Positions 1,269 through 48,322 of a DNA stretch of 64,000 bases are shown in pieces (the stretch's first letter is position 1; every line of letters begins with the position of its first letter). The stretch covers positions 30,435 to 94,434 of the forward strand of contig CAZKFH010000004.1 of NCBI GenBank assembly GCA_964551945.1. Direction: 5' to 3'. The notes beneath the pieces are model-generated. The model was given only the letters and a program-made list of their open reading frames with translations. It searched no databases and was not told where the DNA came from. Both the position numbers and the translations under genes were made by a program. This DNA comes from an uncultured Actinomycetes bacterium (lineage in GTDB: Bacteria > Actinomycetota > UBA4738 > CALAEC01).

Positions 1269-1919
1269 TCAGGTGCCGGTGAGGCAGCCGGTCAGCTCAG
1301 GGCCGAGGCCGGGGAAGCTGAAGACCTTCTCCTCGGTCTCCGGGTCGCGGCCGGTCACGAAGTCGTACGGGATGCCCGCCCACTTCCCGGGCAGCTCGGG
1401 GTACCGCACCCGCTTCTCGTCCTCGCCCTCGTACTGGAAGCCGATCCAGTCCGGGGATGTGAACCCCTCACTGTCGTAGGGCGCGACCGCCACGACCGCC
1501 GAGCCGAACGCCCGCTCCTCGATCAGCCACCGACCTCGGAACGAGCGCTGCCCCTGGAGCCCCGCCTTCACGTACCAGCGGTCGACCCGCAGCAGGTAGC
1601 CCTTCGTGGACGGCGGGGACTCCGGCCCCTCGAAGTACCGGATCTCCTCCACGTCGAACTCGCCGTCCACCTTCATCGTGCGGCGGATGACGTGGAACGG
1701 AAGCTCGCGCTGCTCCGGCTCCGTCGGATCGATCCAGCCGCTCACGCAGGCCTCCGTGGCGGTCGGTGCCTCCCCGCCCTCGTCCATGGGCGACGCCTCG
1801 GCGGACGGGGATTGACGTGTCGGCGACGTCTGCGCGTCGGGCTCAGGCGCATCCCCGTTGCACGCCGAGAGGGCGACGAGCAACAGACACGCTGCGACGG
1901 TGGCGGAGGAGGTCATCAT
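1269..1919 (-). CDS. Hypothetical secreted lipoprotein
   Basis: 216-aa ORF; N-terminal signal peptide with lipobox (LVALSAC); acidic, Pro-rich mature N-terminus; no recognised catalytic motif. Confidence 0.5.
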   Translation of the reverse strand: MMTSSATVAACLLLVALSACNGDAPEPDAQTSPTRQSPSAEASPMDEGGEAPTATEACVSGWIDPTEPEQRELPFHVIRRTMKVDGEFDVEEIRYFEGPESPPSTKGYLLRVDRWYVKAGLQGQRSFRGRWLIEERAFGSAVVAVAPYDSEGFTSPDWIGFQYEGEDEKRVRYPELPGKWAGIPYDFVTGRDPETEEKVFSFPGLGPELTGCLTGT

Positions 1920-1962
1920 GCGTAAACGAATCGGGTCAGTATATTGAGCACCTCGACCGCTG

Positions 1963-3393
1963 ATGTATCACCCATCCAGGATCACTCGCCGTGAGTTCAT
2001 GTCACGCTCGGCCGCTGCGGCCGCGGGCGTGTTCCTGAGCGCGTGCACCGGGACGAAGCTCTCGACGACCCCAACGCCCCGTCCGACCTTCGGCATCGAT
2101 CCCACCACGCTCGATACGCAGTGGCCGATCAAGCGGGTCGTCTACCTGATGCTGGAGAACCGGAGCTTCGACAACCTGTTCGGGCGGTTCCCCGGCGCGA
2201 ACGGCATCCCGGGTCCTGACGGGACCGGGCAGGGCATCCGCTGGGGAAACGAGGTAGACATGGTCCCCTGCCCCGAGTGGCTGCCGGGCGATATGCCCCA
2301 CGATCTGACCGCCTGGCTCGACTCCTACAACGGCGGCGCCATGGATGGCTTCGCGCAAGGCGAGTACGGCCCGTACTACGCGTACTCCTCGTTCCCCGAG
2401 CACGAGATCCCCACCTGGTTCCACTGGGCGAAGAACAACGTGCTCTGCGACAACTTCTTCGCGTCGGCGGCCGGTCCCTCGTACGCGAACCATCTGTGGT
2501 GGATCGCGGGTGACGGCGGCGGCGTCATCGACAATCCCGAGAACATCCAGGTGCAGCGGGTGCCCGACCCGAGTGGGAGCGAGGATCCGCTGATCTTCAA
2601 GTCATGGGGCTGCGATGCCTACGGCGACAACGTTTTCGTCCTGGTTAAGGACGAGGTCGGGAACGTGTCCAAGCACACCACCTGCTTCCGACTGCCCACC
2701 GTGGGCGAGCAGCTATCGGAGAAGGACATCGACTGGGCCTCGTACTCCGGCAACCCGTACCAGGCCGGCTACATCTGGCAGGGGTACTCGGCGATCGACC
2801 AGGTCTTCCACGACAAGGACATGTGGGACGAGCACATCTGGCCGGTCGACGATCTCTTCCGCGACATCGAGGCGGGAGCCCTCCCGTCCGTCACCTGGGC
2901 GACGCCACGGTTCCAGCTCTCCGACCACCCACCCTTCTCGACGAAGCACGCGATGAACTGGGTGACCGACATCGTCAACAAGATCATGGAAGGCCCGATG
3001 TGGGAGCACACCGCGATCTTCATCACGTGGGACGAGTGGGGTGGCCTCTACGACCACGTCACGCCGCCGAAGCTCGATGCGTGGGACGTGGGCTTCCGCG
3101 TGCCGATGCTCGTGATCTCGCCGTATGCGAGGAAGGGCTACATCGATGACGCCGTCGGAGAGTTCAGCTCCCCCCTGCGGTTCATCTCCGACAACTGGGG
3201 GCTCCCCCACCTGACGAAGAGGATCGAGCAGTCACACAACTTCGAGCACGTCTTCGACTTCTCCAAGAAGCCGCGGCCCCCCGACCCTCGACCGAAGGTC
3301 AAGGCGACGAACGCGTACCACGATTTCCCCGAGGAGTTCCCCGAGTGGCCGCCCGAGCTGGAGCCCGAGCCGCCGAAGATCCGCTTCCCCTAG
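1963..3393 (+). CDS. Phospholipase C / acid-phosphatase family phosphoesterase (PF04185-like), Tat-exported lipoprotein
   Basis: 476 aa; twin-arginine motif (TRREFM) plus lipobox (FLSAC); hallmark ENRSFDNLFG motif of the non-haemolytic PLC/AcpA phosphoesterase family. Confidence 0.8.
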   Translation: MYHPSRITRREFMSRSAAAAAGVFLSACTGTKLSTTPTPRPTFGIDPTTLDTQWPIKRVVYLMLENRSFDNLFGRFPGANGIPGPDGTGQGIRWGNEVDMVPCPEWLPGDMPHDLTAWLDSYNGGAMDGFAQGEYGPYYAYSSFPEHEIPTWFHWAKNNVLCDNFFASAAGPSYANHLWWIAGDGGGVIDNPENIQVQRVPDPSGSEDPLIFKSWGCDAYGDNVFVLVKDEVGNVSKHTTCFRLPTVGEQLSEKDIDWASYSGNPYQAGYIWQGYSAIDQVFHDKDMWDEHIWPVDDLFRDIEAGALPSVTWATPRFQLSDHPPFSTKHAMNWVTDIVNKIMEGPMWEHTAIFITWDEWGGLYDHVTPPKLDAWDVGFRVPMLVISPYARKGYIDDAVGEFSSPLRFISDNWGLPHLTKRIEQSHNFEHVFDFSKKPRPPDPRPKVKATNAYHDFPEEFPEWPPELEPEPPKIRFP

Positions 3394-4754
3394 ACCGCCA
3401 GCTCCTCCGCGCTGCGCTTGATGATCTCGAGCGCTTCGTCGATACGGTCTCGATGCGTGCGGTGGCTGACGATGCAGGCCCGGATCGCGAACCGCCCCTC
3501 GATCATCGTGCTCGACAGGAACACCCGTCTCGACGCGTTGATCCTCTCGAGCAAACGGCGAGTGGGATCGTCGGCGTCGCCCGACCCGGAGTTGTAGCGG
3601 AACGCCACGACCGTGAGGTCCGGCTCACCGAGGAGCTCGATGTTCGGAGTCTCGAGCAGCCCTTCGTACAGCACCCGGGTGAGGTCGAGCTTCTCGTCCA
3701 GGGCCGTCCGGAACGCGTCGAGCCCGTGCAGCTTGAGCGGGAGCCAGATCCGGAGCCCTCGGAAGTCCCGCGACAGCTCCGGCGAGTAGTCGGAGAAGTT
3801 CGGGATCTCGTCCTCGGCGGCCAGGTCCTGGAGATAGGAGGCCTGCACCTGATGGGCGTGTCGGAGCAGGACGCGGTCGCGCACGAGCAGGCATCCCGTG
3901 CCGTACGGCAGGAACATCGCCTTGTGCGGGTCGAGCGTGATGGAGTCCGCGCGTTCGATCCCGCGGAACGCGACGCGTCCGCGCTCCGTGAGCTGGAAGA
4001 ACCCACCGTAGGCGGCGTCCACGTGGAGCCAGAGCTGCTCCCGCTCCGCAACGTTCGCGAGCTCGTCGATCGGGTCCACGGCTCCGGTGTTCGTCGTGCC
4101 CGCGTTCGCGATCACGCAGAAGGGCTGGTACCCATCGGCCCGGTCTCGCGCGAGCGCGTCTCCCAGTACGGCCGGGCGGATGCGGAGCCGCTCATCCGTC
4201 GGAAGGGCCCGAACGTTCCCGGGAGGGAACCCGGCGAGCATCGCCGCCTTCGCGACCGATGCGTGCGTCTGGTCGCTCGCGTAGATCGTGCCGCGGAGGA
4301 AGTCCTCGGGGAGCTTGGCCCGACGAGCCGTGACGAGTGCCGAGAAGTTCGCCATCGACCCGCCCGACGTCAGGATGCCGCCGGACTCCGGAGGGAGACC
4401 GAACATGCCGCCGATCCACTCGATCACGGTCGCCTCGATCTGCACGAATGCCGGCGCGGGGCTCCAGAGGTTGACGAACCGGTTCACGCAGGTGGCCACG
4501 AAGTCCGCCAGCGCGGCCGAGAAGAGGCCGCCACCGGGGATGTACGCGAGGTACCCGGGACCCGCGGTCTCGAAGCCGTACGTGGCGGCCTCCCGGACGG
4601 TGGCGAGCAGGCCCTCGAAGTCCGTCTCCCCGCGTTCGGGGACCGGCTCACGGAGGGTGCGCGCGAACGGCAGCGCGTTGTCGACGTTCGAGGCGGGCGC
4701 GTCCGGCAGGCCCTCGAGGAACTCGATGAGATAGGAGAGGACCGCCTCCCCCAT
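3390..4754 (-). CDS. PLP-dependent group II amino-acid decarboxylase (aromatic-L-amino-acid / diaminobutyrate / aspartate decarboxylase family)
   Basis: 3' part of the listed 651-aa ORF; true start ATG (MGEAVLSY...) at 4754. Contains the DPHKAMFLPYGTGCLLV PLP-lysine region and the ...SGGSMANFSAL... motif typical of group II decarboxylases. 4-nt overlap with the upstream PLC stop region. Confidence 0.8.
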   Translation of the reverse strand: MGEAVLSYLIEFLEGLPDAPASNVDNALPFARTLREPVPERGETDFEGLLATVREAATYGFETAGPGYLAYIPGGGLFSAALADFVATCVNRFVNLWSPAPAFVQIEATVIEWIGGMFGLPPESGGILTSGGSMANFSALVTARRAKLPEDFLRGTIYASDQTHASVAKAAMLAGFPPGNVRALPTDERLRIRPAVLGDALARDRADGYQPFCVIANAGTTNTGAVDPIDELANVAEREQLWLHVDAAYGGFFQLTERGRVAFRGIERADSITLDPHKAMFLPYGTGCLLVRDRVLLRHAHQVQASYLQDLAAEDEIPNFSDYSPELSRDFRGLRIWLPLKLHGLDAFRTALDEKLDLTRVLYEGLLETPNIELLGEPDLTVVAFRYNSGSGDADDPTRRLLERINASRRVFLSSTMIEGRFAIRACIVSHRTHRDRIDEALEIIKRSAEELAV

Positions 4755-4839
4755 CGCTCGCTTCTCAGTGGCCGTGGGCTCGAGGGCGAACCCGTCGGTC
4801 GAGGGAGGCGTCACGGACGGCGATTCTAGCGGCGGCCGG

Positions 4840-6138
4840 CTAGCCGAAGCGGCCCGGAGAGCCGGCCCACGAGACCCCGGTTGGAACCTCCGCGAGCTCG
4901 TGGAGCTTCTCGAGGTGCGGCAGCGCGAGCTCCACGTCTCCCGCAGTCGGCTGCGCGGTCGCCAGAGCGGTCGCCCAACGCTCCGTCGCCCAGCGGACCG
5001 GGTCCCGCAGCAGTGACAGGGTCGCCTCGATCGCGTTCCGGTACGCATGGGCGGTGAGCTGGTCCGCCTGCAGTCGCTGCGACGCCTCTCGAGCGCGCGC
5101 CCCGATCCGCTCCCGCGCCGACGGATCGGCCCGCAGACGGCTGAGCGCATCCGCGAGCTCGAGGGCATCCGGTTCCCCCGCCGGGATGCGAACGACCGTA
5201 TCCTCGGGCGCGTCGAGGTACGAGCCCACCGCCTGAACGACCGTGGGCTTGCCGGCAGCCATCGCCCGCACCAGCGTGCCACTGACCTCGCCTCGGTGCG
5301 GATGGCGGAGGTTGACGACCACATCCACGGCATGCAGCCACGCATAGAAGTCGCGCTCCGAGGCGTCCCCCAGGACGGTCACTCGGTCCTGGACGCGGCT
5401 GTCCGCGACGAGCGCATCGATGTCGTAGCCGGGGATGCGTCTGCCCACGATCGCGACTCGGACGTCGCCCTCCAGATGAGAGACGGCGTCGAGCACCGCG
5501 TCGATCCCCTTCGAGCTGCCAATGTCCCCGAGTACGCCGATCACGAACGCATCGCCGAGTCCCTCGCTGATCTCTCGCGCTCGCTTGGGGGCGCGGCGCG
5601 CCGAGCGGGGTGGCGCGATGACCGGGTGCGGCACGACGTGGACCGGAGTCCGGGAGCCGATCGCCTCCATGTACTCGGCTCCGAAGGCCGAGTGCACCAT
5701 CACGCCGCGCGATCTGCGGACAAGGTGCGCGCACCAGGGCGTCTCGAGTGGCCCCTGGATCTCCGGCCGGGTCTCGTAGAGGCGAAGCCGGGCGGGCTCT
5801 GCTTCGGCGACCGCTCGCATGCCCAGGGGGTCTCCCGTATCGCGGAACCACCTCACCAGGTCGTCGATCGCCAGGTCGTGGAGCATCAACAGGCCGGGGT
5901 GGCGGATCGCGAGGCGGTAGATCTCGCCGTGGAACTCCGCGTTGTTGCCCACGTGATACACGGCCAGGTCCGCGGACGCGACCGTCTCGTCGACCCGGGG
6001 GTCGAGCGGCCACAGCACATCGATCCGGTGGCGCTTGTGGAATCCGATCTCCTTCAGCGACGCGAGGACCTGTTCGGAGTACGTCGCGATGCCCGAGCGC
6101 GCGGGCGGCATCGGTGAGAGGTAGGCGATGCGCGCCAT
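4840..6138 (-). CDS. Glycosyltransferase family 4 (GT-B, retaining)
   Basis: Start MARIAYLSPMPPARSGIATYS (GT4 N-terminal Gly-rich loop); C-terminal half has the GT4 EX7E-like region (...RGEVSGTLVRAMAAGKPTVV...). Same strand and operon as the decarboxylase. Confidence 0.75.
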   Translation of the reverse strand: MARIAYLSPMPPARSGIATYSEQVLASLKEIGFHKRHRIDVLWPLDPRVDETVASADLAVYHVGNNAEFHGEIYRLAIRHPGLLMLHDLAIDDLVRWFRDTGDPLGMRAVAEAEPARLRLYETRPEIQGPLETPWCAHLVRRSRGVMVHSAFGAEYMEAIGSRTPVHVVPHPVIAPPRSARRAPKRAREISEGLGDAFVIGVLGDIGSSKGIDAVLDAVSHLEGDVRVAIVGRRIPGYDIDALVADSRVQDRVTVLGDASERDFYAWLHAVDVVVNLRHPHRGEVSGTLVRAMAAGKPTVVQAVGSYLDAPEDTVVRIPAGEPDALELADALSRLRADPSARERIGARAREASQRLQADQLTAHAYRNAIEATLSLLRDPVRWATERWATALATAQPTAGDVELALPHLEKLHELAEVPTGVSWAGSPGRFG

Positions 6139-6145
6139 CAGCCCA

Positions 6146-7195
6146 TCAGCCCAGGAGTCGCGCGACGACCTCGGGCCACGGCGGCACGACCTCGCGCAGC
6201 AGCTTGTGCCCCGCTTCGCCCATCGCGCGCGCGACATCGGGATCGTTGGCGAGCGCGTCGATCGAGCCGGCGATCTCGCGAGGCTTCGGCGCCGCGACGA
6301 TGCCGTTCTCCCCGTCGCGGACGAGCTCGAGCGGACCGCCGCTGTCGGTGAGCGTGATCACGGGCTTGTGCGCCGCCATCGCCTCGAGCGTCACGTAGCC
6401 GTAGTCCTCGTCGAACGGTCCGTAGTAGACACCGAGCGCGTTCCGGTAGAGCTCGATCAGCCGCTCGTCAGTGACACCGCCCTCGAGCGTCACACGGTCG
6501 CTCAACCCCCGTTGGTCGATCAGCCTGCGGAGCTTCGGCTCGTCGGAGCCCGAGCCGACGAGCACCAAACGCACGCCGCCGTGCACGTGCCGCATGGACT
6601 CCGCGACCAGCGCCTGTCGCTTGAGCGGCTCGAGGCGGCTCGGGAACAGCACGTAGTCGCCGGTCTCGCCGGGCTCTGTCTCCAGCAACTTCTCGGTAAG
6701 GGGCGAGCGGTGGTAGAGCGCCTCGGCCGACATCCCGAGACTCTCGCGCAGACGGTCCCGCACGTTGACGGAGTTCGTGAAGATGCGCCGCGCCTCGGCG
6801 AGCCCCGCCCGGTCGGCCTTCCAGATGAGCTCGCGGACCCGCTCACCCTCGGGATACATCGCGAGGTCGCCGAAGACCGGGTGGCTCCAGAGCTCGTACG
6901 CCGCGCGGTGCTGATGGATCAGCCACACGACCTTCCGAGGATGGCGAACGAGGTACGCGGGGAACTTCAGCGCGATGACCATGTCGATCGGCATGCCGTT
7001 CGCCTCGGTCAGATCGAGGCTGCGCCAGAGCGCCATCTGATGGACGAGCTCCGGCGGCGGATACCACTTGAATGGGATCGGCAGGATGTCCACGTCGTGA
7101 CCTGCCTCGCGCAGCGCGCCGGCGAGCCCTTCCGTGTGGAACTCGCCGCCCCCGCGCGAGAACGGGGTCTGCGGGTGGCAGATGGCGATCCTCAT
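6146..7195 (-). CDS. Glycosyltransferase family 4
   Basis: 349 aa starting MRIAICHPQTPFSRGGGEFHTEGLAGALREAGHDV (PimA/MshA-like N-terminus); C-terminal ...EDYGYVTLEAMAAHKPVI... GT4 motif. 7-nt gap to the next GT4. Confidence 0.75.
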   Translation of the reverse strand: MRIAICHPQTPFSRGGGEFHTEGLAGALREAGHDVDILPIPFKWYPPPELVHQMALWRSLDLTEANGMPIDMVIALKFPAYLVRHPRKVVWLIHQHRAAYELWSHPVFGDLAMYPEGERVRELIWKADRAGLAEARRIFTNSVNVRDRLRESLGMSAEALYHRSPLTEKLLETEPGETGDYVLFPSRLEPLKRQALVAESMRHVHGGVRLVLVGSGSDEPKLRRLIDQRGLSDRVTLEGGVTDERLIELYRNALGVYYGPFDEDYGYVTLEAMAAHKPVITLTDSGGPLELVRDGENGIVAAPKPREIAGSIDALANDPDVARAMGEAGHKLLREVVPPWPEVVARLLG

Positions 7196-7632
7196 AGGGT
7201 CCGCTCGCGCTCCGACTGCAGCTCCCGGAGGCGGCGCGACATGAGCGCGATCTCCTCCTCCTGGCGGCGAAGATCGTCCTCCGCGCGCGCGAGGCGGTCG
7301 GCGAGGCCCACCCCGATCGACGCGAGCTCCGCCGTGATCCGATCGTACCTGCGGCTGATCGGCCGCAGCATGCGGAACAGCGCGATCTTCAGCCGCCGCT
7401 TGATGCCCGAGCCGCCGGTGAGCAAGGGATCTCCCCACGGGGCGGCCTGTCCCCACTGCCGGTGGAGCGTCTCCGCGATCTCCTCGAGCCGCGCGCGCAG
7501 CTCCGCGGTCGGCGTGAGGGAGGCGGACTCGTCGCCCTGCACCCAGTACAGCTCGCGCTCCAGCGCCTCCTTGGGCTCCTCGCGCTTCTCGTCGCTCACG
7601 TTGCGATGATAGGTCGCCCGAGCCCCGGACAT
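7192..7632 (-). CDS. Hypothetical coiled-coil protein (start uncertain)
   Basis: 146-aa ORF rich in R/E/L heptads (RLRELQSERERTL); ATGA overlap with the downstream GT4 start indicates translational coupling. Real start may be internal, since only 8 nt separate it from the divergent gene. Confidence 0.4.
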   Translation of the reverse strand: MSGARATYHRNVSDEKREEPKEALERELYWVQGDESASLTPTAELRARLEEIAETLHRQWGQAAPWGDPLLTGGSGIKRRLKIALFRMLRPISRRYDRITAELASIGVGLADRLARAEDDLRRQEEEIALMSRRLRELQSERERTL

Positions 7633-7640
7633 GCTGGAAT

Positions 7641-9356
7641 TTGTTGATACGGTTCCGCCGTATGTCCTTCCGAAAATCCCTGCGAGGCCTCGTCGTGCTC
7701 ATGCTGCTGGCTTCGGCTTGCAACGGTGACGATGGTCCCCCGGTCGAGACGCCCACCTCGGCGGCACCCACGACCACGGGCGGCACCACCGCGCCTCCCG
7801 AGGGGTTCGCGGAGGAGGTCGCGTGCGGCCTCCCGCCCCAGTGGCTTGCGCGCATCTGGCGCGGGTACCACCCGGAGCGCAGCGCGGACATCCAGATCCT
7901 GCCGAAGGTCCCGAACTTCATCGGCGCGGCACTGCCTCACGTCGGGCCGTGGGACTTCACCTCGGACGTCCCGATGTTCTGGTACGGCCCCGGCTACATC
8001 AAGCCGATCGGGCCGGTGCAGGAGCCCGTGACGTCGGCCGACATCACCGCGACGTTCGACCATCTGCTCGATTCGTCGTTCGAGCCCGTCGACGGGGAGC
8101 CGATGCTGGACGCGCTCGTCCCCGCCGAGGAGCGTCCGGAACCGCCCCGGCTCATCCTCGAGATGATCTGGGACGGAGCGGGTCGCAACGTGCTGACGCA
8201 GTGGCCCGACGCCTGGCCGAACCTCGCGGAGCTGCGTCCGCAGGGCGCGTGGTACGAGCACGCGACCGTCGGCTCCTCGCCGACCTCGTCCGCGCAGATC
8301 CACGCGACGATCGGGACCGGCGCCTTCCCGCGGAACCACGGCGTCGTCGGGCACAGCATCCGTATCGACGGAGAGATCGTCTCGCCGTGGAAGGACGGAG
8401 CGCGCGAGCTGCTCGTCGAGACGTTCGCCGATCACTTCGACCTCGAGCACGACAACGAGCCGATCGTCGGCGAGTCGGGCACCGTGCCGATCCAGCTGGG
8501 AATGATGAGCCGCGGCGCCCTCGCCGAGGGCGGCGACAAGGACATCGCGGTGCTCCGCACGCCGGGGAACGCCGAGACGCTCGGCGCGGAGGGCGTGGCC
8601 TGGAACCTCCCCGAGGGGTTCGACCAGTGGTACCGGTACGTGCCGTACGCGAACGACCTGCCAGAGCTCCCCACGTACTTCGACGACGTCGAGCTCGACG
8701 CGGGAGACGGCAAGCGCGACGGATTGTGGCACGGGCGAGCGTTCGAACAGTCGGACGAGCTTCTCGACGGGTTCCACACGCCGGCGCGCGTCCCGTATCA
8801 GACGCGGCTGGTCGAGGAGATGATCACGCGCGAGGGGTTCGGTGCGGACGAGACGACCGACCTCTTCTACATCAACTACAAGCTGATCGACGCGCTCGGG
8901 CACCTGTTCGGTATCCAGGACCCGGCGATCGGTGACGCGGTGCGCGCCCAGGACGACTCGCTGTCGCGGCTGATCGCGTTCCTCAACGAGCAGGTCGGCG
9001 AGAACCGCTGGGTGCTCCTGGTCACCGCCGACCACGGGTCGCTGGAGTCCACGCAGACGAGCGGGGCGTTCAATATCTCCGGCGAGGCGGTCAGCTCGGC
9101 GATCCAGGCGCGCTTCGACGAGGACGGGGACGAGGTCCCGGTGATCGAGCAGGTCAAGCAGACGGAGATCTTCATGAATATCTCGGAACTCGAGGAGCAG
9201 GGCCACACGCTGGAGGATGTGTCACGGTTCATCATGGATCTTCGGCAGCAGGATGTGCCGTTCCCCGGCTTCGAGGTGCCGTCACCGAACGAGAAGGTCT
9301 TCCAGGCCGCGTTCCCGGCCGAGGCACTCGAGTCGCTGCCGTGCCTCCAGGCCTAG
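7641..9356 (+). CDS. Type I phosphodiesterase / nucleotide pyrophosphatase-like (alkaline phosphatase superfamily) lipoprotein, paralog 1
   Basis: Signal peptide plus lipobox (LLASAC; alternative ATG start at 7662). Motifs LILEMIWDGAGRNVL (metal-binding Asp), GSSPTSSAQIHATIGTGAFPRNHG (NPP-type Thr nucleophile block, compare PT.T.PNH...TG..P..HGI) and C-terminal TADHGS. Confidence 0.75.
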   Translation: MLIRFRRMSFRKSLRGLVVLMLLASACNGDDGPPVETPTSAAPTTTGGTTAPPEGFAEEVACGLPPQWLARIWRGYHPERSADIQILPKVPNFIGAALPHVGPWDFTSDVPMFWYGPGYIKPIGPVQEPVTSADITATFDHLLDSSFEPVDGEPMLDALVPAEERPEPPRLILEMIWDGAGRNVLTQWPDAWPNLAELRPQGAWYEHATVGSSPTSSAQIHATIGTGAFPRNHGVVGHSIRIDGEIVSPWKDGARELLVETFADHFDLEHDNEPIVGESGTVPIQLGMMSRGALAEGGDKDIAVLRTPGNAETLGAEGVAWNLPEGFDQWYRYVPYANDLPELPTYFDDVELDAGDGKRDGLWHGRAFEQSDELLDGFHTPARVPYQTRLVEEMITREGFGADETTDLFYINYKLIDALGHLFGIQDPAIGDAVRAQDDSLSRLIAFLNEQVGENRWVLLVTADHGSLESTQTSGAFNISGEAVSSAIQARFDEDGDEVPVIEQVKQTEIFMNISELEEQGHTLEDVSRFIMDLRQQDVPFPGFEVPSPNEKVFQAAFPAEALESLPCLQA

Positions 9357-9598
9357 TCCCAGATCCGCTCCAGGTGCCACCGGCCGGAGCGCCGGTCCTG
9401 ATAGATGTCGCAGACCGCGCCGCCCCGCGCCTCCACCCGCCAGTACTCGCGGTCACGGCCGTCCTCCCACCACCGGCCCTCGATCCGCCAGCGGCCGATC
9501 ACGTCCGCGACCTGGTACTGCCGGGAACGCCAGCGGAACGCGGCGGGCATGCCGGCGTCACGCTCGACCTTGACCTCCTCGTCGTACCGGATCCCCAC
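9353..9598 (-). CDS. Small Trp/Arg-rich hypothetical protein, predicted SOS-inducible
   Basis: 3' part of listed ORF 9353..9859; candidate starts GTG 9598 (81 aa) or ATG 9550 (65 aa: MPAAFRWRSRQYQVADVIGRWRIEGRWWEDGRDREYWRVEARGG...). LexA box 10 nt upstream of the GTG. Convergent 4-nt overlap with paralog 1. Confidence 0.45.
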   Translation of the reverse strand: MGIRYDEEVKVERDAGMPAAFRWRSRQYQVADVIGRWRIEGRWWEDGRDREYWRVEARGGAVCDIYQDRRSGRWHLERIWD

Positions 9599-9608
9599 CT
9601 TCGCCCCC

Positions 9609-9624
9609 TCGAACGTATGTTCGA
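9609..9624. promoter_or_regulatory. LexA (SOS) operator TCGAAC-N4-GTTCGA
   Basis: Perfect palindrome TCGAACGTATGTTCGA in the 380-bp gap between two phosphodiesterase paralogs, immediately upstream of the minus-strand small ORF. Confidence 0.65.
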
Positions 9625-9737
9625 CCGGACCTGTGAAGGTACTCCGGAGCCATTTGGGTGTCAAGCCGAGCCTGACGGCCCAACCGCGCCTCGATAGACT
9701 TCCGCGTTCCCATGACCCTTGACCCCACGAGCATTTC

Positions 9738-11387
9738 TTGACCGTTCGAGCGGGCGCGCTCCTCCTGCTGCTGGCGATGGCGGCAGCGTGCACGGAAGAC
9801 GCACCGACGCCGCGGTCGTCACCCTCGCCGACGGCCTCGGCGACCGCGTCCCCCTCCATCGATCCGTCCGAGCCGCCCAGCCGCTACGCGCGCATCGCCT
9901 GCAGCCTGCCGCGCGAGCAGATCCTGCGCGTGTACAACGGCACCAACCCCGATCGCTCCGGCGAGCTGCAGTTCGTTCCCCAGGAGCCGAACTACGTCGG
10001 GAACTTCGCGTCACACTCGGGACCGTGGGATTACCTCCAGGACGTCCCCCTGTTCCTCTACGGGCCCGGCCACGTTCCCGCGACCGGGGAAGTTCCCCGC
10101 AAGGCGACCGTCGCGGATCTCGCTCCGACGTACGCCGAGATGATCGACTTCGAGTTCGACGCTCCCGACGGCCAACCGCTGACGGAGGCGATCGGTCCCG
10201 CAGCGGATCCCCCGAAGCTGATCCTGACGGTCGTCTGGGACGGCGCCGGGATCAACGTGCTGGAGCAGTACCCGCGCGCGTGGCCGGTCGTGAAGGCCCT
10301 GATCCCCAACGGCGCCTGGTACGAGAACGCGACTGTGGGCTCCTCACCCTCGGTGACGCCGGCGATCCACTCGACGATCGGCACCGGCGCGTTCCCCCGC
10401 ACGCACGGGATCGTCGATCTGCGCTTCCGGATCGAGGGCGCCGTGGACCCCTCGGCGTTCCAACGAGCCACGCTGATGGTCGGTCCGAGCCTCGGTGACG
10501 TCTACGACGCCGCGCTCGACAATCAGCCCGTGATCGGGATGGTCGGCGCCGAGGGAACGCTCGGCATGATCGGGCACGGCTCGCTGTGGGAGAACGGTGA
10601 CTTCGACATCGCGGCGGCGTCGCGCGCCGGCGAGTGGGGGCTCGCCGGTAACAACAACGAGTTCTACGAGTTCCCGGCGTACGTCCACGACCTTCCCGGC
10701 TACGACAAGGTACCGGCTGAAGCCGATCGCGACGACGGCACAGTTGACGGCACGTGGTTCGGCGCCGAGCTCGACACGCCGGACAGCTACACATACACCG
10801 AGGCGTACAACCGCTACCAGACCGGAGTGATCGAGGAGGTCATCGAGCGGGAGGAGTTCGGCCGGGACGAGATCACCGACCTCCTGTACGTCAACTACAA
10901 GCAGATCGACAAGGTCGGGCACAAGTTCTCGTTCCCGTCGCAGGCCATGGAGAAGGCGGTGAAGGGAAGCGACAACGCGTTCGAGGCCCTGGTCGAGGTC
11001 CTAGACCGCCAGGTCGGCGAGGGTGAGTGGGTCATGGCGCTCACGGCCGACCACGGCTCCACCCCCTTGCCCGAGACGACCGGGGCGGTCATCATCGATA
11101 ACTTCGAGCTTGCCAGGGACCTCCTTGCCGAGTTCGATGGGGACGACGACGACCGGCCCGTGATCCAGAGCCCGCGCGTGACCCAGACCTGGGTCGACCT
11201 GGAGGAGCTCGAGGAGCACGGCCACACGTTGGAGGACATGGCGGACTACCTGATGGCGTACACGCGGGCCGACAACGCGGTCGACCCCTCGAGCGTTCCG
11301 GCCGACGCTGCAGATGATCGGCTGTTCGCCGCGTCGTTCCCGAGCGCGGAGCTCGACACGCTCCCCTGCCTGGAGCCGGCCTCATGA
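9738..11387 (+). CDS. Type I phosphodiesterase / nucleotide pyrophosphatase-like lipoprotein, paralog 2
   Basis: TTG start; signal peptide with lipobox (LAMAAAC). Motifs LILTVVWDGAGINVL, GSSPSVTPAIHSTIGTGAFPRTHG, LTADHGS. Colinear similarity to paralog 1 over the full length. Confidence 0.75.
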   Translation: MTVRAGALLLLLAMAAACTEDAPTPRSSPSPTASATASPSIDPSEPPSRYARIACSLPREQILRVYNGTNPDRSGELQFVPQEPNYVGNFASHSGPWDYLQDVPLFLYGPGHVPATGEVPRKATVADLAPTYAEMIDFEFDAPDGQPLTEAIGPAADPPKLILTVVWDGAGINVLEQYPRAWPVVKALIPNGAWYENATVGSSPSVTPAIHSTIGTGAFPRTHGIVDLRFRIEGAVDPSAFQRATLMVGPSLGDVYDAALDNQPVIGMVGAEGTLGMIGHGSLWENGDFDIAAASRAGEWGLAGNNNEFYEFPAYVHDLPGYDKVPAEADRDDGTVDGTWFGAELDTPDSYTYTEAYNRYQTGVIEEVIEREEFGRDEITDLLYVNYKQIDKVGHKFSFPSQAMEKAVKGSDNAFEALVEVLDRQVGEGEWVMALTADHGSTPLPETTGAVIIDNFELARDLLAEFDGDDDDRPVIQSPRVTQTWVDLEELEEHGHTLEDMADYLMAYTRADNAVDPSSVPADAADDRLFAASFPSAELDTLPCLEPAS

Positions 11388-14300
11388 CGAAGACCGGCCG
11401 CTCCTGGGCAGCGGTCGCGACCGTCACCGCGATCGTGGCGGTGATGGGGTGGCAGTTCTTCACCGACGCGTCTCGCGCGGTGCCGGCGTTCGACACCGCG
11501 TACTACGAGTGGCGCGTCGAGTACCTCTTGGCCGAGGAGCCCGGCGCGCTGATCGACCTGCGAGGGGCGGACGGCGCGCTCGCCAGCGGGTACCGCGTCG
11601 CTGAGCCGGTGCTGGGAGCGCTCCTGCGAACGGTCGGCGGGGTCGACGACTCCGTTCCGTCGGTCGTGCTCTCGATCCTGTTCCGCGTGCTGTGCGCGCT
11701 GGGGATGGCTGCGTTCGCGTGGCGGCACCGGAGGAACTGGCTCCTCTTCTACCTCACCCTGCTGACGATCCCGGCGCTGTTCCTGCTGCAGCGGTTCTTC
11801 GGCTACATGGACAACTTCATGACGGGGGCTCTGCTCGCGGGAGCGCTCGTGCTGCTCGACCGGATGCGGGAGTCCTGGGGGGCACGGATCGCCGTCACCT
11901 TGTTCTTCTTCCTCTCGGGGCTGAGCCATCCGACAACCCTCGTGATCCTGTTGCTGTCTCTCGGTGCCGTCGCGGTGTACCGGTTCGTACGGGAGCGGTC
12001 GCTCCTCAAGGCCCTGCAGTCGGAGGGCCTCGTCATCGCGACCGGCACGGTCTCGGTGATCATGACCGCGGCGTTCTGGTTGGGAGGCCTGTGGGGTCCG
12101 ACGTCCTCGTTCAGCGACGCGGCCGTCCCACCCCCGGCCGACGTCGACTATTTCGTCAACCGAAGCCTCGGCGTGATGAAGAACCTCCAGCCCTTCGACC
12201 CGGCCACCGCCCCGGACTGGATGGTGCTGCTTGGCGTCGCCGCGCTCGGCGCCCTGATGCTCGCGGGGCTGGTGCACCTTGTTCGGCGCATCGGCAAGGA
12301 CCGCGAGTACTTCGCGGAGATCACAGTCGGCTGGACGCTCCCGCTCCTGGGGATGCTCGGGTTCCTGGTCGGCTTCGCGTACCCGTACTTCCGCTTCTTC
12401 AACGCGACGCTCGCTCCTCTGTCGCTCGCGGCGCTCGGGCTGGCGCTGTTCATCGCGGGCGCACGGAAGATCGGCGGGCAGCGGCTCGCGGTGCTGGCGC
12501 TCGTGGCCGTCGTGGCCCTCCTCGGAGGCTGGTGGTACCGCGGCCTGTCGGCGTGGAACGAGACGGGGACGTGGCTCACGCCCGAGATCCGAACGACCAC
12601 CTCCGCGCTGAACGGCTACCTCGAAGCCGACCCCGACGTTCGGGCACTCATGGTGGTCGACGCCCAGGGCGAGTCGCAGGTCTCCTATGGCGCCTACAAG
12701 GAGTACCTGAACGCGACGTACGCGGGGATCGACGGAGAGAACATCGACCGCGTCACGTTCTTCTTCGGCCGCATCGAGGACCTCGAGGCCGGTCAGGCCA
12801 CGGAACTCCCCGGCAACGACGTCTACAACACGATCGCCACTGAGACCGCGAAGGAGGCACTCGCGGTCCTCGAGGAGGACAACGTCGTCGTGTTCCTGCC
12901 AGCCGAGATGAACACCCCCTCCTCAAACGAGGAATACCTGGGTGAATGCACCGAGGTCATCTTTCGGACCGGGACGTTCTTGAGCGACACCCAACCGTGT
13001 TCAGAGGTCGGGAACAGCGGTCTCTACGCGGTCCCCGGCTTGTCGTCATCTGAGATCGACGAAGCTTCCTTCCGAAGCGCTTTTGAAGCCGGCGCGACGG
13101 CCGCCTCGCAGGCGACCACCTTCGCAACCAATCCACCGGGGCCCTTCGAGAACATCGGTTCGACGCTGCTGGCAACGCTGAGGCTCGCGCTCCTCTTCCT
13201 GCTTCCCGGATGGCTCTTCTACCGGAGGTTCGAGCGGCGCTCGTTCCCCGAGGCACTCGCGCTCGTGCCGTTGTTCTCGATCGCGGCGGTGACCACGATC
13301 GGGGTCTTCGCGATGGCGATCGTCCGCTCGCCGTTCAGCCCGACCATCGGATGGGCATCGTGGGGCATCGCCGTGCTCATCGCGGCATTCTGGAGGCTCC
13401 CCGCAGGCATCCGCCGCCGTCGCGATGCGCTCTTCGCCGGTCCCGCCCGGCTGATCGACTCCACCGCCCTGCTCTTCAAGAAGCGCGACTTCACGGCATT
13501 GATGGGCGCGCAGTGGCTCGCACAGGCCGCGGACGGGCTCGTCGCGGCATCGATCGCGAAGCTCATCACGTTCGGTGGGCAGAGCGGCTTGGACGTCGAG
13601 GCCGCGGGCTCGCCGCGCGACGCGCTGGTGATCGTGCTGCTCACCTTCCTGCCCTACACCCTCTTCAGCCCGTTCCTCGGAGTCGCGATCGACCGCGGCG
13701 ACCGACGGAAGCTGCTGATCTGGGCGAACGCCGTGCGGACCGTGATCCTCGCCGCGATCGTGGTGCTCGGTCTCTCCACGATCGGCGACGCCGCGCTCTA
13801 CGTCTCGCTGCTCCTGGTTCTGGCCGGCACCCGTCTGTTGCTGGCGATCAAGAGCGCCGCGCTCCCGACGATCCTCGGCGGCCGTGACCTCCTGCAGGGC
13901 AACTCGATCTCCCAGGCCGGGAGCGCCCTGTTCCAGCTCTTCGGCGCGGGAGTCGGGCTCGTCGCGTCCGGGCTCCTGAACACGCGCGTGATCCTGATCG
14001 GCGGCGTGCTTCTCTACGCGGGAGCCACCGCTTCCTCGATCGCCGTTCGCAATCTCGCCGGCGACACGGGCAAGGACTCGCTCTCGGGCGAGCTTCGGCG
14101 GGTGTTCGGCAACATGATCGACGGCTTCAAGGAGGTGCGCCGCCGCGCGGCCGCCGGGATCGGCCTGCTCTCTTTCCTTACGGTGCGAAGCATGCTGACG
14201 ATGGTCGTCCTCGCGACCGGCTTCGCGTCCCGCGAGCTGATCGAGGCAGAGGGCCTCACCTCAACCGCGATTCCCGGTCTCGCCGGAGTGCTCGGGGCCG

Positions 14301-14731
14301 GCCTCGGATTCGTCATCGCGCACAACGTTCGTGAGCGCGTCGCGGCGGCTCGGATCGTCAGTGGTGCCCTGATCGTCGGTGCGATCGGCATGCTCGCGTT
14401 CGGCGGGATCGTGTCGATCCTTGGGATCTCGCTGATGGCATTCTCGGTGGGTCTCGCGTTCTTCCTCGGCAAGGTCGGGGTCGACACGATGATGCAGGAG
14501 GCCCTCGACGACCGGTTCCGAGGACGCGGCTTCAGCCTTCAGGACATCGCGTACAACATCTCCTGGCTGCTGCCGGCGTTCGTGCTGTACCTCTTCGTGG
14601 GTGAGAACTTCGACCGTGTACGGATCCTGCTCGTGATCGCGGGCGTCGTGTTCCTGGCGGTGGCGCTGCTGATCGGGTTCGCCGCGCGGCGCCTGCCCGT
14701 TACGGGAAAGGAACCGACGCGGGCGACGTGA
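11384..14731 (+). CDS. Large fusion membrane protein: N-terminal ~650-aa polytopic domain with a big extracytoplasmic loop (GT-C-like glycosyl/lipid transferase architecture, low confidence) fused to a C-terminal 12-TM MFS-type transporter domain
   Basis: 1115 aa; ATGA overlap with paralog 2 stop (translational coupling). N-domain has many hydrophobic helices, a first-loop DTAYYEWRVEY acidic motif and a ~250-aa soluble segment (residues ~400-650). C-domain (from ~FKKRDFTALMGAQWLAQAADGLVAAS...) has MFS-like paired 6+6 TM organisation with basic interhelix loops. Confidence 0.65.
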   Translation: MTKTGRSWAAVATVTAIVAVMGWQFFTDASRAVPAFDTAYYEWRVEYLLAEEPGALIDLRGADGALASGYRVAEPVLGALLRTVGGVDDSVPSVVLSILFRVLCALGMAAFAWRHRRNWLLFYLTLLTIPALFLLQRFFGYMDNFMTGALLAGALVLLDRMRESWGARIAVTLFFFLSGLSHPTTLVILLLSLGAVAVYRFVRERSLLKALQSEGLVIATGTVSVIMTAAFWLGGLWGPTSSFSDAAVPPPADVDYFVNRSLGVMKNLQPFDPATAPDWMVLLGVAALGALMLAGLVHLVRRIGKDREYFAEITVGWTLPLLGMLGFLVGFAYPYFRFFNATLAPLSLAALGLALFIAGARKIGGQRLAVLALVAVVALLGGWWYRGLSAWNETGTWLTPEIRTTTSALNGYLEADPDVRALMVVDAQGESQVSYGAYKEYLNATYAGIDGENIDRVTFFFGRIEDLEAGQATELPGNDVYNTIATETAKEALAVLEEDNVVVFLPAEMNTPSSNEEYLGECTEVIFRTGTFLSDTQPCSEVGNSGLYAVPGLSSSEIDEASFRSAFEAGATAASQATTFATNPPGPFENIGSTLLATLRLALLFLLPGWLFYRRFERRSFPEALALVPLFSIAAVTTIGVFAMAIVRSPFSPTIGWASWGIAVLIAAFWRLPAGIRRRRDALFAGPARLIDSTALLFKKRDFTALMGAQWLAQAADGLVAASIAKLITFGGQSGLDVEAAGSPRDALVIVLLTFLPYTLFSPFLGVAIDRGDRRKLLIWANAVRTVILAAIVVLGLSTIGDAALYVSLLLVLAGTRLLLAIKSAALPTILGGRDLLQGNSISQAGSALFQLFGAGVGLVASGLLNTRVILIGGVLLYAGATASSIAVRNLAGDTGKDSLSGELRRVFGNMIDGFKEVRRRAAAGIGLLSFLTVRSMLTMVVLATGFASRELIEAEGLTSTAIPGLAGVLGAGLGFVIAHNVRERVAAARIVSGALIVGAIGMLAFGGIVSILGISLMAFSVGLAFFLGKVGVDTMMQEALDDRFRGRGFSLQDIAYNISWLLPAFVLYLFVGENFDRVRILLVIAGVVFLAVALLIGFAARRLPVTGKEPTRAT

Positions 14732-16475
14732 GGTCGCCCTCCGGGTACTCGCCCGGACCCGCTGCACCCACTTGCGCGTCTGTCAGCGCGCCCAGGTAGT
14801 CGCCGGGAAACGCGCCGGCGAAGACCAGCCGATCGAGCTCCTCATCGGAGATCTTCGAGCGATCCGCGTCCTTCGGCAGACCGTCGCCGTAGCGGTATTC
14901 GCCCACGAACCGCGCGACGTCCTCGAGCGTGATGCCAGCGACGTCCATGGCCCCCCGATCGAGGAACAGGCCCGACGGGGTCACCTTCTGCACGATCTCG
15001 CGACCGAAGTACGCGTCGACGTCCTGGCCGAGCACGTCGGGGTGGATGCGAAGGCCGCCGGTGGTCTCCGGGAGCGGCGTCTGGCCGTGATCCGCGGTGT
15101 AGGCAAGCACCCACTCCCCCTTGCCGACCTCCCGGTCGAGCGTGTCGACGATCTCTCCGAGCAGCTGATCTTGCGCGCGCAATACCTCCTCCTCCTCGGG
15201 CGCGACCATGTTCCAGAGGTGACCGCCGAAGTCGGTCGGCTTCAGCTCGACGAACAGCAGGTCCGTGACGTCATCGTCGCCGAACGGCTCGCGGCGCATC
15301 ATCTCGAGCAGCGCCTGTCCCTGATGGATGACGAACGCCGGGGTCGCGGGGATGACCTTCGGGTCCTGCAGGTCGTACTCGTTCCACATCCCGTCGAGCT
15401 TGCCGTCCTCGGCGTCCTGCTCGTCGAGCCGCGCGCGCAGATCGTCCTCGCCGGGGAGGTAGTCGGGAACCTCGTACAGCTCCTCGTTCGCGAAGAACTC
15501 GCCGACCCCCTCGTCGGGGTTCCATAGAACCGCGACGTCGCGATCAGCGCCGGTCGGCTGAGCACCGTGACTCATCATCCCCAGGTGCCAGGACTCGTAG
15601 CCGATCATCCCCACCCAGGCCTCGTTGTTCGTGTCGAGATCCCACTGATCGGCCAACGTCGTATCGAGCAGCAGCTGAGGGTCGGCATCGTGCTCGAAGA
15701 AGAGATCGCCGACACTTCCGTCCGGGAGCCGACCGGTGATCTCCGCCATACCGTGACTGCTCGGGTACCGCCCGGTCCCCATGTTCGCGTGGATCGCTGA
15801 GGTGACTGCCGGCGCCGAGCCGATCGTGGCGTTCGTGAACACCGTCCCCTCATCCATCAGCCTGCGTAGCTCGGGCCACGCATCAGGCCAGCGTTCGAGC
15901 AGATTCCAGCCTCCCCCGTCGTACGCGACGAGGACGACGGCTCGCGGCCGCGTGGTGAGCGGCGCGGGCTGAGGCTCGGGAGGGGCAGGTGGGAGTGCCT
16001 CTCGAAGAGGCAGTCCTGCGGGGTCGAAGTAGTGAAGCGGGTGCCCGAACCGGGTCGTCTTCCCCAGCAGCCAGCCGAAGGACGGCGCCAGGTCAGTCAC
16101 ATCAACAGAGCGATCCGAGGGTGGCCCCGGCGTGATGTGCCCAGGCCCGTAGAGGACGATCGGGACGCGCTGGTGATAGCTCCATGGCGTCGGGTGAGTG
16201 GTGCTCGGGTCGGCGTCATCGGTGCCGAGACCTACGCCGCTCCAGCGGACCACCACGTTGTACGGCTCCGGCACGAACGCGATATCGGTCGAGGTCGCCG
16301 GGTAGTACCCCCGCCGCAGGGCCGTGAGGACGTCCCCGCCGACCGCCTCGGCCATCTGGTCGAGTGTGCGGGACTCTTGGGGCGGCCCCGGGACGGGACG
16401 AGGCTCTTCCTCCGTGCAGCCCGCAGCGAGGAGGAGAACCGTCAGGACGAGGGCCGCACGGGGCGCGGGAAGCAT
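14700..16475 (-). CDS. Type I phosphodiesterase / nucleotide pyrophosphatase-like lipoprotein, paralog 3
   Basis: 3' part of listed 811-aa ORF; start ATG 16475 (MLPAPRAALVLTVLLLAAGC lipobox). Motifs VVLVAYDGGGWNLL, GSAPAVTSAIHANMGTGRYPSSHG, YTADHGQ. 32-nt convergent overlap with the fusion gene. Confidence 0.75.
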   Translation of the reverse strand: MLPAPRAALVLTVLLLAAGCTEEEPRPVPGPPQESRTLDQMAEAVGGDVLTALRRGYYPATSTDIAFVPEPYNVVVRWSGVGLGTDDADPSTTHPTPWSYHQRVPIVLYGPGHITPGPPSDRSVDVTDLAPSFGWLLGKTTRFGHPLHYFDPAGLPLREALPPAPPEPQPAPLTTRPRAVVLVAYDGGGWNLLERWPDAWPELRRLMDEGTVFTNATIGSAPAVTSAIHANMGTGRYPSSHGMAEITGRLPDGSVGDLFFEHDADPQLLLDTTLADQWDLDTNNEAWVGMIGYESWHLGMMSHGAQPTGADRDVAVLWNPDEGVGEFFANEELYEVPDYLPGEDDLRARLDEQDAEDGKLDGMWNEYDLQDPKVIPATPAFVIHQGQALLEMMRREPFGDDDVTDLLFVELKPTDFGGHLWNMVAPEEEEVLRAQDQLLGEIVDTLDREVGKGEWVLAYTADHGQTPLPETTGGLRIHPDVLGQDVDAYFGREIVQKVTPSGLFLDRGAMDVAGITLEDVARFVGEYRYGDGLPKDADRSKISDEELDRLVFAGAFPGDYLGALTDAQVGAAGPGEYPEGDLTSPASVPFP

Positions 16476-21233: not shown

Positions 21234-21280
21234 GGGATGGGTAGAATATGCGCTCCCGGCCCACTGGAGAGACGATCCCT

Positions 21281-47501: not shown

Positions 47502-47522
47502 GTATGTGCTCCTCTCTCTGCG

Positions 47523-48290: not shown

Positions 48291-48322
48291 AGACGTTCCA
48301 TAGCACGCCGAACGTCAGTCGC

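Follow-up and report, generated by a model that had tools for sequence, protein, structure and literature searches.

A phosphoesterase gene beside GT4-type glycosyltransferase genes is the arrangement found in the PlcP–Agt system of Proteobacteria (Sinorhizobium, SAR11, Phaeobacter, and P. aeruginosa PA3219/PA3218), where head-group removal is followed by sugar transfer (PMC4796936, PMC8528852). A similar arrangement is present at positions 1963–7599 of a 64-kb stretch of DNA from an uncultured actinobacterium (68% GC; hereafter the window, meaning the whole stretch that was analysed). It consists of a plus-strand gene for a PF04185-family phosphoesterase, convergent with a minus-strand unit that encodes a small protein, two GT4 glycosyltransferases (GT4-B and GT4-A), and a decarboxylase dependent on pyridoxal phosphate (PLP). 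The first-pass annotation read the locus as a candidate PlcP-like lipid-remodelling module, a label that is not earned. PlcP is an intracellular Mn metallophosphoesterase according to the work cited as ref. 32 in PMC8528852, whereas the PF04185 protein is a predicted lipoprotein of the twin-arginine translocation (Tat) pathway. PlcP and Agt form one operon, whereas the genes here are convergent and no canonical Pho box was found in the island promoters. Moreover, none of the models tested classes the two GT4s as Agt-like, and orthologues of both reside in glycan-export clusters. Judged by sequence and synteny, the locus represents a variant envelope-glycan cluster, as yet uncharacterised, in which the association with PF04185 is deep and the insertion of the decarboxylase shallow.

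Wall-glycopolymer clusters of the ABC-transporter-dependent type are exemplified by the mycobacterial Lcp1–RmlD–WbbL–ManB and galactan export loci and by the E. coli O8/O9a polymannan. In Actinomycetota clusters of the Wzm/Wzt–LCP–Rml–ManC kind, orthologues of the small protein, GT4-B, and GT4-A (hereafter the trio) are located directly upstream of Wzm and Wzt (the latter with Wzt_C), in the company of LCP, RmlC/D, and ManC-like genes. The serial GT4s and the coiled-coil accessory protein may also resemble the WbdA–C/WbdD arrangement. However, the 64 kb of the window contains none of these exporter, ligase, or nucleotide-sugar genes, and no characterised member is matched by a trio protein above any cut-off.

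A further comparison is offered by the phosphatidylinositol mannoside–lipomannan–lipoarabinomannan pathway of mycobacteria and corynebacteria, which employs cytoplasmic GT4s (PimA, PimB′), GT-C mannosyltransferases, the polyprenyl-phosphate-mannose synthase Ppm1, and a flippase of unknown identity. The island around the locus likewise contains two cytoplasmic GT4s, a fusion of a GT-C fold with a transporter, and a Ppm1/AglJ-like GT2. Yet PimA and PimB′ are matched very weakly (E about 3e-4 to 6e-4), the GT2 gene lies beside a sqdB-like gene rather than mannose genes, and no inositol or phosphatidylinositol-synthase genes were seen.

The phosphoesterase shares its Pfam family with AcpA of Francisella and Burkholderia, PlcH/PlcN, mycobacterial Plc, and plant NPC, in which the metal-binding E–N of ENRSFD and the nucleophile position are kept. 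AcpA also resembles it in having a Ser nucleophile and a single domain of ~480 aa. Tat export is known for PlcH/PlcN and mycobacterial PlcA–D as well. The bacterial phosphocholine-specific phospholipases C (PC-PLCs) are ~700 aa in length, with C-terminal DUF756 repeats and a Thr nucleophile. As for the decarboxylase, aromatic amino-acid decarboxylases (AADCs), such as the Trp decarboxylase of Ruminococcus gnavus (4obu) and the DOPA decarboxylases, have the same group-II fold type and conserved catalytic residues. They differ in sharing roughly 40% identity with the window protein, which reaches no equivalog cut-off, and AADCs are not known to be encoded in operons with glycosyltransferases.

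Composition of the locus and conservation of the trio

Genes were selected by third-position GC content (GC3) and then typed by Pfam and NCBIfam. GC3 is 0.86–0.90 for the PF04185 gene, the decarboxylase gene, and the GT4-A and GT4-B genes, and none of these four proteins reaches an NCBIfam equivalog. The families assigned at first pass hold, i.e., a PF04185 protein (216.7 bits), two GT4s, and a PF00282 decarboxylase. The locus comprises the following features:

1963..3393, plus strand: PF04185-family phosphoesterase (AcpA/PlcH/NPC), a predicted Tat-exported lipoprotein of 476 aa (Pfam, motifs)
3390..4814, minus strand: group-II PLP-dependent amino-acid decarboxylase, AADC-like, 474 aa, GTG start, last gene of the operon (PF00282, 229.4 bits)
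4840..6135, minus strand: GT4-A, 431 aa, a glycosyltransferase of the retaining GT-B type whose C terminus bears a four-helix extension (PF13692, PF00534)
6146..7195, minus strand: GT4-B glycosyltransferase, 349 aa (PF00534, 100.3 bits; PF13692; PF13439)
7192..7599, minus strand: conserved small protein, 135 aa from a GTG at 7599, combining a basic amphipathic segment with a coiled coil at the C terminus

GT4-A belongs to a clear orthologous family in uncultured Actinomycetota. Relatives were collected by a tblastn scan with GT4-A over one genome per species. The scan gave 221 matches, and at least 80 species-level metagenome-assembled genomes of uncultured Actinomycetota carry a GT4-A relative. 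The best 80 loci were fetched and annotated by tblastn with the window proteins and the proteins of one distant cluster; in all, about 90 related genomes entered the comparison. Twelve loci (L001, L003, L006, L007, L009–L015, and L078) are of the window type, with GT4-A identities of 52–93%, and 72 are distant (45–52%). The trio is kept in 12 of the 12 window-type loci and in all 72 distant loci having sequence there. Wherever the sequence next to GT4-A is available in a related locus, GT4-B is the gene immediately upstream, and the small open reading frame (ORF) precedes GT4-B in nearly all 80 loci having sequence there.

The surroundings of the trio in the distant loci are those of glycan export. 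Wzm is encoded downstream of GT4-A within 3.5 kb in 62/63 of them, 38/56 encode an LCP ligase, and rhamnose genes and a ManC-like gene usually belong to the cluster as well. Two distant clusters, L008 and L037, were typed in detail by Pfam and NCBIfam. Both show the order LCP, RmlA-like, GT4, RmlC, RmlD, PF04185, small ORF, GT4-B, and GT4-A, followed by Wzm, Wzt(+Wzt_C), GT2, ManC-like, and SpoIID/LGFP. Their RmlD and LCP proteins score over the NCBIfam cut-offs, and the best matches of their Wzm and Wzt are galactan and teichoic-acid exporters. By gene content, clusters of the L008/L037 type are wall-glycopolymer clusters of the ABC-transporter-dependent type.

The distant loci also show local variation. 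In one distant genome (L067, 4956–11185), two tandem copies of the trio are located upstream of Wzm/Wzt. In L008 (11365–13566), and also in L036, L038, and L057, three successive proteins of ~245 aa, none with a Pfam or NCBIfam match, are encoded between GT4-A and Wzm.

The phosphoesterase gene accompanies the trio in both groups. It is convergent with the trio in all 12 window-type loci, and a PF04185 homologue lies on the same strand, no more than 6 kb upstream, in 21 of 56 distant loci. Since the gene is convergent in the former and co-directional in the latter, the linkage survives rearrangement, and the adjacency, as read from synteny, is above chance and old. The adjacency of PF04185 and GT4 genes noted in the first-pass annotation is supported as non-random.

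Within the window, the minus-strand genes are closely packed. The small ORF and the GT4-B start overlap by ATGA, 10 nt separate GT4-B from GT4-A, and 25 nt separate GT4-A from the decarboxylase, a junction at which one relative has a 4-nt overlap. Because of this gene spacing, the unit from 7599 to 3390 is a single operon in its geometry, with transcription as one unit predicted, and the decarboxylase is probably co-transcribed with the trio. The operon of two GT4s and a decarboxylase had been recognised earlier, but its fourth gene, 7192–7599, had been missed. The small protein has no Pfam or NCBIfam match; its motifs LERELYW and LRPISRRYDR are kept in L001, L003, L007, and L008. A conserved TATCAT, a putative −10 element (the reverse complement of 7606–7611) 6 nt before the GTG, suggests that the small ORF is the first gene of the operon and that the transcript is probably leaderless.

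Both glycosyltransferases carry the PF00534 and PF13692 domains of GT4 enzymes, and a GT-B fold was modelled for GT4-A. The AlphaFold2 (AF2) model of GT4-A (pLDDT 89) gave only GT4 enzymes as top matches in Foldseek (HepE, MshA, SPS, BshA, and PimA), with TM scores of about 0.6 and 13–20% identity, i.e., a generic fold whose neighbours provide no clue to the acceptor. Sequence and profile searches with GT4-A against solved structures likewise returned only generic matches to the C-terminal domain. The weak PDB matches of GT4-B are the WbaZ-1 mannosyltransferase, TarM, and MshA. The earlier view of the GT4s as Agt-like glycolipid synthases finds no footing in the profile scores. On the MGlcDAG-synthase model NF049988 (cut-off 400), GT4-B scores 21.9 bits and GT4-A has no match, and both fall far under every NCBIfam glycolipid-synthase cut-off, a comparison made at the level of these models. 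Orthologues of both enzymes belong instead to the Wzm/Wzt–LCP–Rml–ManC clusters described above.

The phosphoesterase and the decarboxylase

The PF04185 domain covers residues 56–415 of the phosphoesterase at full length and is its sole Pfam match; the gathering cut-off of the family is 23 bits. The translation contains ENRSFDNLFG, the twin-arginine motif TRREFM, and the lipobox LSAC, and the segment with the Tat motif and the lipobox reads MYHPSRITRREFMSRSAAAAAGVFLSAC. The earlier assignment as a Tat lipoprotein is borne out by these motifs. Window-type orthologues keep TRREF and L(S/G/A)(A/S)C, and every PF04185 homologue gathered from the related loci is a predicted lipoprotein that has the AcpA-type Ser, which occupies the nucleophile position in 40/40 of them. 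A score above the gathering cut-off, the ENRSFD metal site, and the Ser nucleophile together place the protein in the PF04185 family.

Within this family, the best PDB match is Francisella AcpA (2d1g, 100 bits). E70 and N71 correspond to E43 and N44 of AcpA, and the Ser of GPSYAN corresponds to S175, whereas the phospholipase C (PLC) structures 8k3g, 8yk5, and 9gye and plant NPC4 (8hav) match more weakly. The protein differs from the characterised enzymes in scoring below both relevant NCBIfam cut-offs (acid_phos_Burk, TIGR03397: 162.9 bits against 362.75; PC_PLC, TIGR03396: 125.6 bits against 580.25). It has a single domain, and the C-terminal DUF756 domains of bacterial PC-PLCs were not found in it by Pfam. 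The Ser nucleophile, the single-domain size of ~480 aa, and AcpA as the best PDB match make the protein AcpA-like. The enzyme is predicted to be extracytoplasmic and lipid-anchored. A full-text literature search on PF04185 returned nothing on Actinomycetota wall clusters.

Membership in the PlcP family was considered and rejected, since PlcP is a metallophosphoesterase of PF00149, a family that the phosphoesterase does not match at E ≤ 0.01; the term "PlcP-like" is thus withdrawn. The only PF00149 metallophosphoesterase of the window is a weak match (25.8 bits, 263 aa) at 47061–48314 on the minus strand. Its gene adjoins an SRPBCC/polyketide-cyclase-like gene, with no glycosyltransferase gene beside it.

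The decarboxylase contains the motifs SDQTHASV, HVDAAYGG, and DPHK and the loop Tyr, aligned to 4obu and 7xin. It thereby retains the catalytic Lys (in DPHK), both PLP-binding residues (Asp and His), and the Tyr of the catalytic loop. Among solved structures, the Trp decarboxylase 4obu and the DOPA decarboxylase 7xin are closest to it, and the best PDB matches score 210–224 bits. The choice between 2,4-diaminobutyrate (DABA) and Tyr/Asp decarboxylase envisaged at first pass does not apply. The NCBIfam equivalogs RhbB, PanP, MfnA, and GAD give 213.3, 135.3, 114.9, and 32.4 bits against cut-offs of 900, 606, 299, and 380, respectively. These scores led us to reject the identities of a DABA, an Asp, and a Tyr (MfnA) decarboxylase.

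The distribution of the decarboxylase gene differs from that of the trio. It occupies the operon slot only in the window, L001, and L003; the latter two encode proteins of 86% and 79% identity, and their gene order between the PF01663 genes and dnaE2 matches that of the window. Nine of the 12 window-type loci lack it. The slot between GT4-A and PF04185 (3390–4840) is thus variable, holding the decarboxylase in three loci, another gene in L009, and nothing in eight. The L009 occupant (11290–12735) was considered as a diverged decarboxylase and rejected: it is encoded on the opposite strand and is an unrelated protein of 481 aa. Decarboxylase homologues at 68–71% identity occur alone in unrelated contexts, and a metagenome scan found 23 further loci (42–82% identity), none with GT4-A, GT4-B, or PF04185 nearby. 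The surroundings of the orthologues at 52–82% identity are unrelated. Two loci at 82% identity illustrate this, with a HAD hydrolase upstream in one and a MiaE_2 gene downstream in the other. Since homologues elsewhere lack the trio and PF04185, the link with the GT4s is confined to the immediate clade of the window. By this distribution, the decarboxylase is a recent lineage-specific insertion, not ancestral in the module, and the earlier notion of it as an integral part is contradicted by its absence from most window-type loci and its solitary occurrence in the 23 others.

The wider island and phosphate regulation

The genes adjoining the locus within the first ~23.5 kb of the window include the following features:

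1269..1919, minus strand: lipoprotein of 216 aa, its gene divergent from that for PF04185 (translation with a signal peptide and the lipobox LSAC)
1937..1946, plus strand: CAGTATATTG, a conserved −10-like element within the 43 nt that separate the PF04185 gene from its divergent upstream neighbour
7641–9356, plus strand: PF01663 (PafA-like) lipoprotein (84.9 bits)
9353–9598, minus strand: DUF6504 gene, 81 aa, between two PF01663 genes (53.1 bits)
9738–11387, plus strand: PF01663 (PafA-like) lipoprotein (100.3 bits)
11384..14731, plus strand: 1115-aa membrane protein, an N-terminal glycosyltransferase-like domain of GT-C fold joined to an MFS transporter at the C terminus (Pfam, AF2/Foldseek)
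21248–22468, plus strand: sqdB-like gene (NCBIfam NF041015)

Window-type loci share a common layout, in which PF01663 lipoproteins and a membrane protein of ~1100 aa are encoded upstream of the trio, and the convergent PF04185 gene, the 216-aa lipoprotein, and dnaE2 follow downstream. The 216-aa lipoprotein has no Pfam or NCBIfam match; a homologue lies beside PF04185 in 11/12 window-type loci, and the contig of the remaining one (L013) ends before that point. The two PF01663 genes and the DUF6504 gene (7641–11387) are conserved in window-type loci only, the DUF6504 protein being 82–98% identical across them and its neighbours 61–84%. In total, five PF01663 paralogues, secreted lipoproteins of the alkaline-phosphatase superfamily, are found within 14 kb, the others being at 14700–16475 (minus strand), 16527–17804, and 19509–21233 (minus strand). 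The copy at 16527–17804 is a weak match and may be degenerate. As a set, the five would lend the island a phosphate-scavenging flavour.

In the 1115-aa protein, MFS_1 covers residues 730–1063 (Pfam), and the AF2 model of residues 1–700 (pLDDT 85) gave STT3, AglB, PglB, AftA, DPY19, and ArnT as top Foldseek matches. This GT-C–MFS fusion accompanies the trio only in loci without Wzm/Wzt. Its relatives include stand-alone versions of ~680 aa and one version with a DUF6504 domain (P0335).

The sqdB-like gene "14 kb away", cited earlier as a sign of sulfoquinovosyldiacylglycerol (SQDG) synthesis, does exist, and its protein matches the UDP-sulfoquinovose synthase model NF041015 over the full length with 483.1 bits (cut-off 575). 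As evidence for SQDG it gains no support from its partner. A GT2 gene whose product has a DUF2304 membrane N-terminus follows directly (21248–23524 for the pair, plus strand), and this GT2 is most similar to AglJ and polyprenyl-phosphate hexose synthases rather than to SqdX or SqdD. A possible product of the pair would be polyprenyl-phosphate-sulfoquinovose, serving as a donor in envelope glycosylation, and not SQDG. Together with the GT-C fold, the pair points to extracytoplasmic glycosylation from polyprenyl-phosphate sugars, not to sulfolipid synthesis. A TAGAAT is present one base before the ATG of the sqdB-like gene.

The sequence CAGTATATTG is a putative promoter element of the PF04185 gene. 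It is kept as (C/A)AGTAT A(T/G)TG, ~20–30 nt before the start, in eight orthologous loci (L001, L003, L006, L007, L009–L011), and L014, L015, and L078 have a divergent TAGGATA-type element in its place. A scan for E. coli-type promoters and terminators found nothing, a scan that is uninformative at 68% GC.

Regulation by inorganic phosphate (Pi), as proposed at first pass, gained no support. In S. coelicolor, the PHO box has the core GTTCACC in 11-nt direct repeats (PMC4415409). The Streptomyces-type pattern GTTCACn5GTTCAC gave 28 matches against 40.9 expected, none of them in island promoters, although the PhoP motif of the host lineage may differ. The C. glutamicum-type PHO box, which comes from another lineage and may not be that of the host, gave 0 matches. 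A k-mer search across five divergent promoter regions of the island revealed no common motif above shuffled controls, and no pst, phoU, phoR, or other pho genes lie within the 64 kb.

A dnaE2-like error-prone polymerase gene occupies positions 1–1230 of the window (minus strand). In L001, L003, and L007, the genes after it encode an MFS protein, an ImuB-like polymerase of the Y family, a DUF3040 protein, and a MerR regulator; window-type loci are constantly flanked by this mutasome cassette.

Favoured and competing explanations

The explanation that we favour, with about an even chance of being correct, is a lipid-linked envelope-glycan module with an associated exo-phosphoesterase. The trio would act on the cytoplasmic face and add sugars to the lipid-linked precursor of an envelope glycoconjugate, i.e., a wall glycopolymer or a lipoglycan. 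In most relatives, the precursor would be exported by the adjacent Wzm/Wzt and attached by an LCP ligase. In the clade of the window, the exporter genes are non-adjacent, and the GT-C–MFS fusion and the PF01663 lipoproteins suggest another translocation and finishing route, with the GT-C–MFS protein as the likely downstream partner of the trio. The PF04185 enzyme probably hydrolyses a phosphoester on the outer face, linked to this envelope chemistry or to the recovery of phosphate; the substrate may be a phospholipid head group, a phosphorylated glycan or carrier, or a scavenged organophosphate. The decarboxylase most likely makes a biogenic amine independently of the module.

Several points weigh against this explanation. 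No Wzm, Wzt, LCP, or ManC homologue is present in the 64 kb; the window would therefore belong among wall-glycopolymer loci by trio orthology and not by local gene content, and its export route is conjecture. Sequence and fold specify neither acceptor nor donor for GT4-A and GT4-B, and GT4 enzymes acting on diacylglycerol or phosphatidylinositol share the same fold. The PF04185 gene and the five PF01663 paralogues look like a phosphate-scavenging set, which would fit lipid remodelling equally. Furthermore, the synteny of the distant loci need not be a sign of function, since one large clade that has kept its gene order could also produce it. The acceptor, the sugars, the phosphoesterase substrate, and all regulation are given here conditionally, whereas the families, operon geometry, and synteny counts are direct readings.

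Lipid remodelling under Pi starvation, in which a PF04185 PLC would free diacylglycerol, the GT4s would make phosphorus-free glycolipids, and PF01663 enzymes would free head-group Pi, is rather unlikely. The PF04185 family does include genuine PLCs (8k3g, 8yk5, 9gye, and plant NPC4, 8hav). Plant NPC4/NPC5 and Pseudomonas PlcH/PlcN are Pi-starvation enzymes, and PF04185 enzymes fill a lipid-remodelling role in plants. The conserved PF04185–GT4 linkage and the five PF01663 paralogues with a sqdB-like gene nearby would also fit, and the PlcP–Agt precedent shows that a PLC beside a glycosyltransferase can mark such a process (PMC4796936, PMC8528852). At the level of the wall, the exchange of teichoic for teichuronic acid in Bacillus is an analogue (PMC4415409, PMC6232261). 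The PF04185 protein of the window, however, is not of the PlcP family but AcpA-like, with a Ser nucleophile, 476 aa, no DUF756, and a score under the PC-PLC cut-off, and it would act outside the cytoplasm, whereas the GT4s would act within it. The GT4s, in turn, reach at most 21.9 bits on the MGlcDAG-synthase model (cut-off 400) and have their orthologues within Wzm/Wzt–LCP clusters. No PHO boxes were found in the island promoters and no pho genes in the window, and the GT2 partner of the sqdB-like gene is not an SQDG synthase.

That the genes are not functionally coupled at all, being an inherited gene order in a compact genome with PF04185 and PF01663 as ordinary phosphate scavengers, we regard as distinctly unlikely. 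The whole region, including the 216-aa lipoprotein, dnaE2, imuB, DUF3040, and MerR, is indeed syntenic across window-type loci; the PF04185 gene is convergent here and has a promoter-like element of its own, and the slot beside it takes unrelated insertions. Against this stands the recurrence of PF04185, co-directional and upstream of the trio, in 21/56 distant loci that have no other window-type synteny, a frequency far above expectation for a family of few copies per genome.

A broader reading, which we consider improbable, takes the region of ~1.3–23.5 kb as one undescribed envelope pathway of uncultured Actinomycetota, leading to a wall polymer that is free of phosphorus and bears sulfoquinovose. 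The trio would build a lipid-linked glycan, the GT-C–MFS protein would translocate and finish it in place of Wzm/Wzt, the SqdB-like/GT2 pair would supply an anionic phosphorus-free sugar, and the PF04185 and PF01663 enzymes would recover phosphate from phospholipids or phosphate-rich wall polymers, the amine from the decarboxylase being an extra decoration in the clade of the window. Such a pathway would amount to a sulfur-for-phosphorus switch at the level of the wall, analogous to the teichoic-to-teichuronic acid switch of Bacillus (PMC4415409, PMC6232261).

Least probable of all is a cytoplasmic small-molecule glycoside or compatible solute, with the decarboxylase providing an amine aglycone for the two GT4s: the small-molecule GT4s MshA, BshA, sucrose-phosphate synthase, GlgM, and TreT are the nearest structural neighbours of GT4-A and the decarboxylase is probably co-transcribed, but these matches are generic (TM about 0.6, 13–20% identity), most loci that keep the trio lack the decarboxylase, and the trio is tied to exporter and ligase genes in distant relatives.

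By itself, the finding opens no long-standing question, and it cautions against over-reading a PLC gene next to a glycosyltransferase gene as lipid remodelling. Its relevance lies in the cell envelopes of never-cultured soil actinobacteria. If the envelope-glycan explanation is true, it would define a widespread, uncharacterised three-gene module for glycan assembly, consisting of a coiled-coil protein and two divergent GT4s, with a PF04185 exo-phosphoesterase as a recurrent partner and two alternative downstream routes, Wzm/Wzt or a GT-C–MFS fusion.

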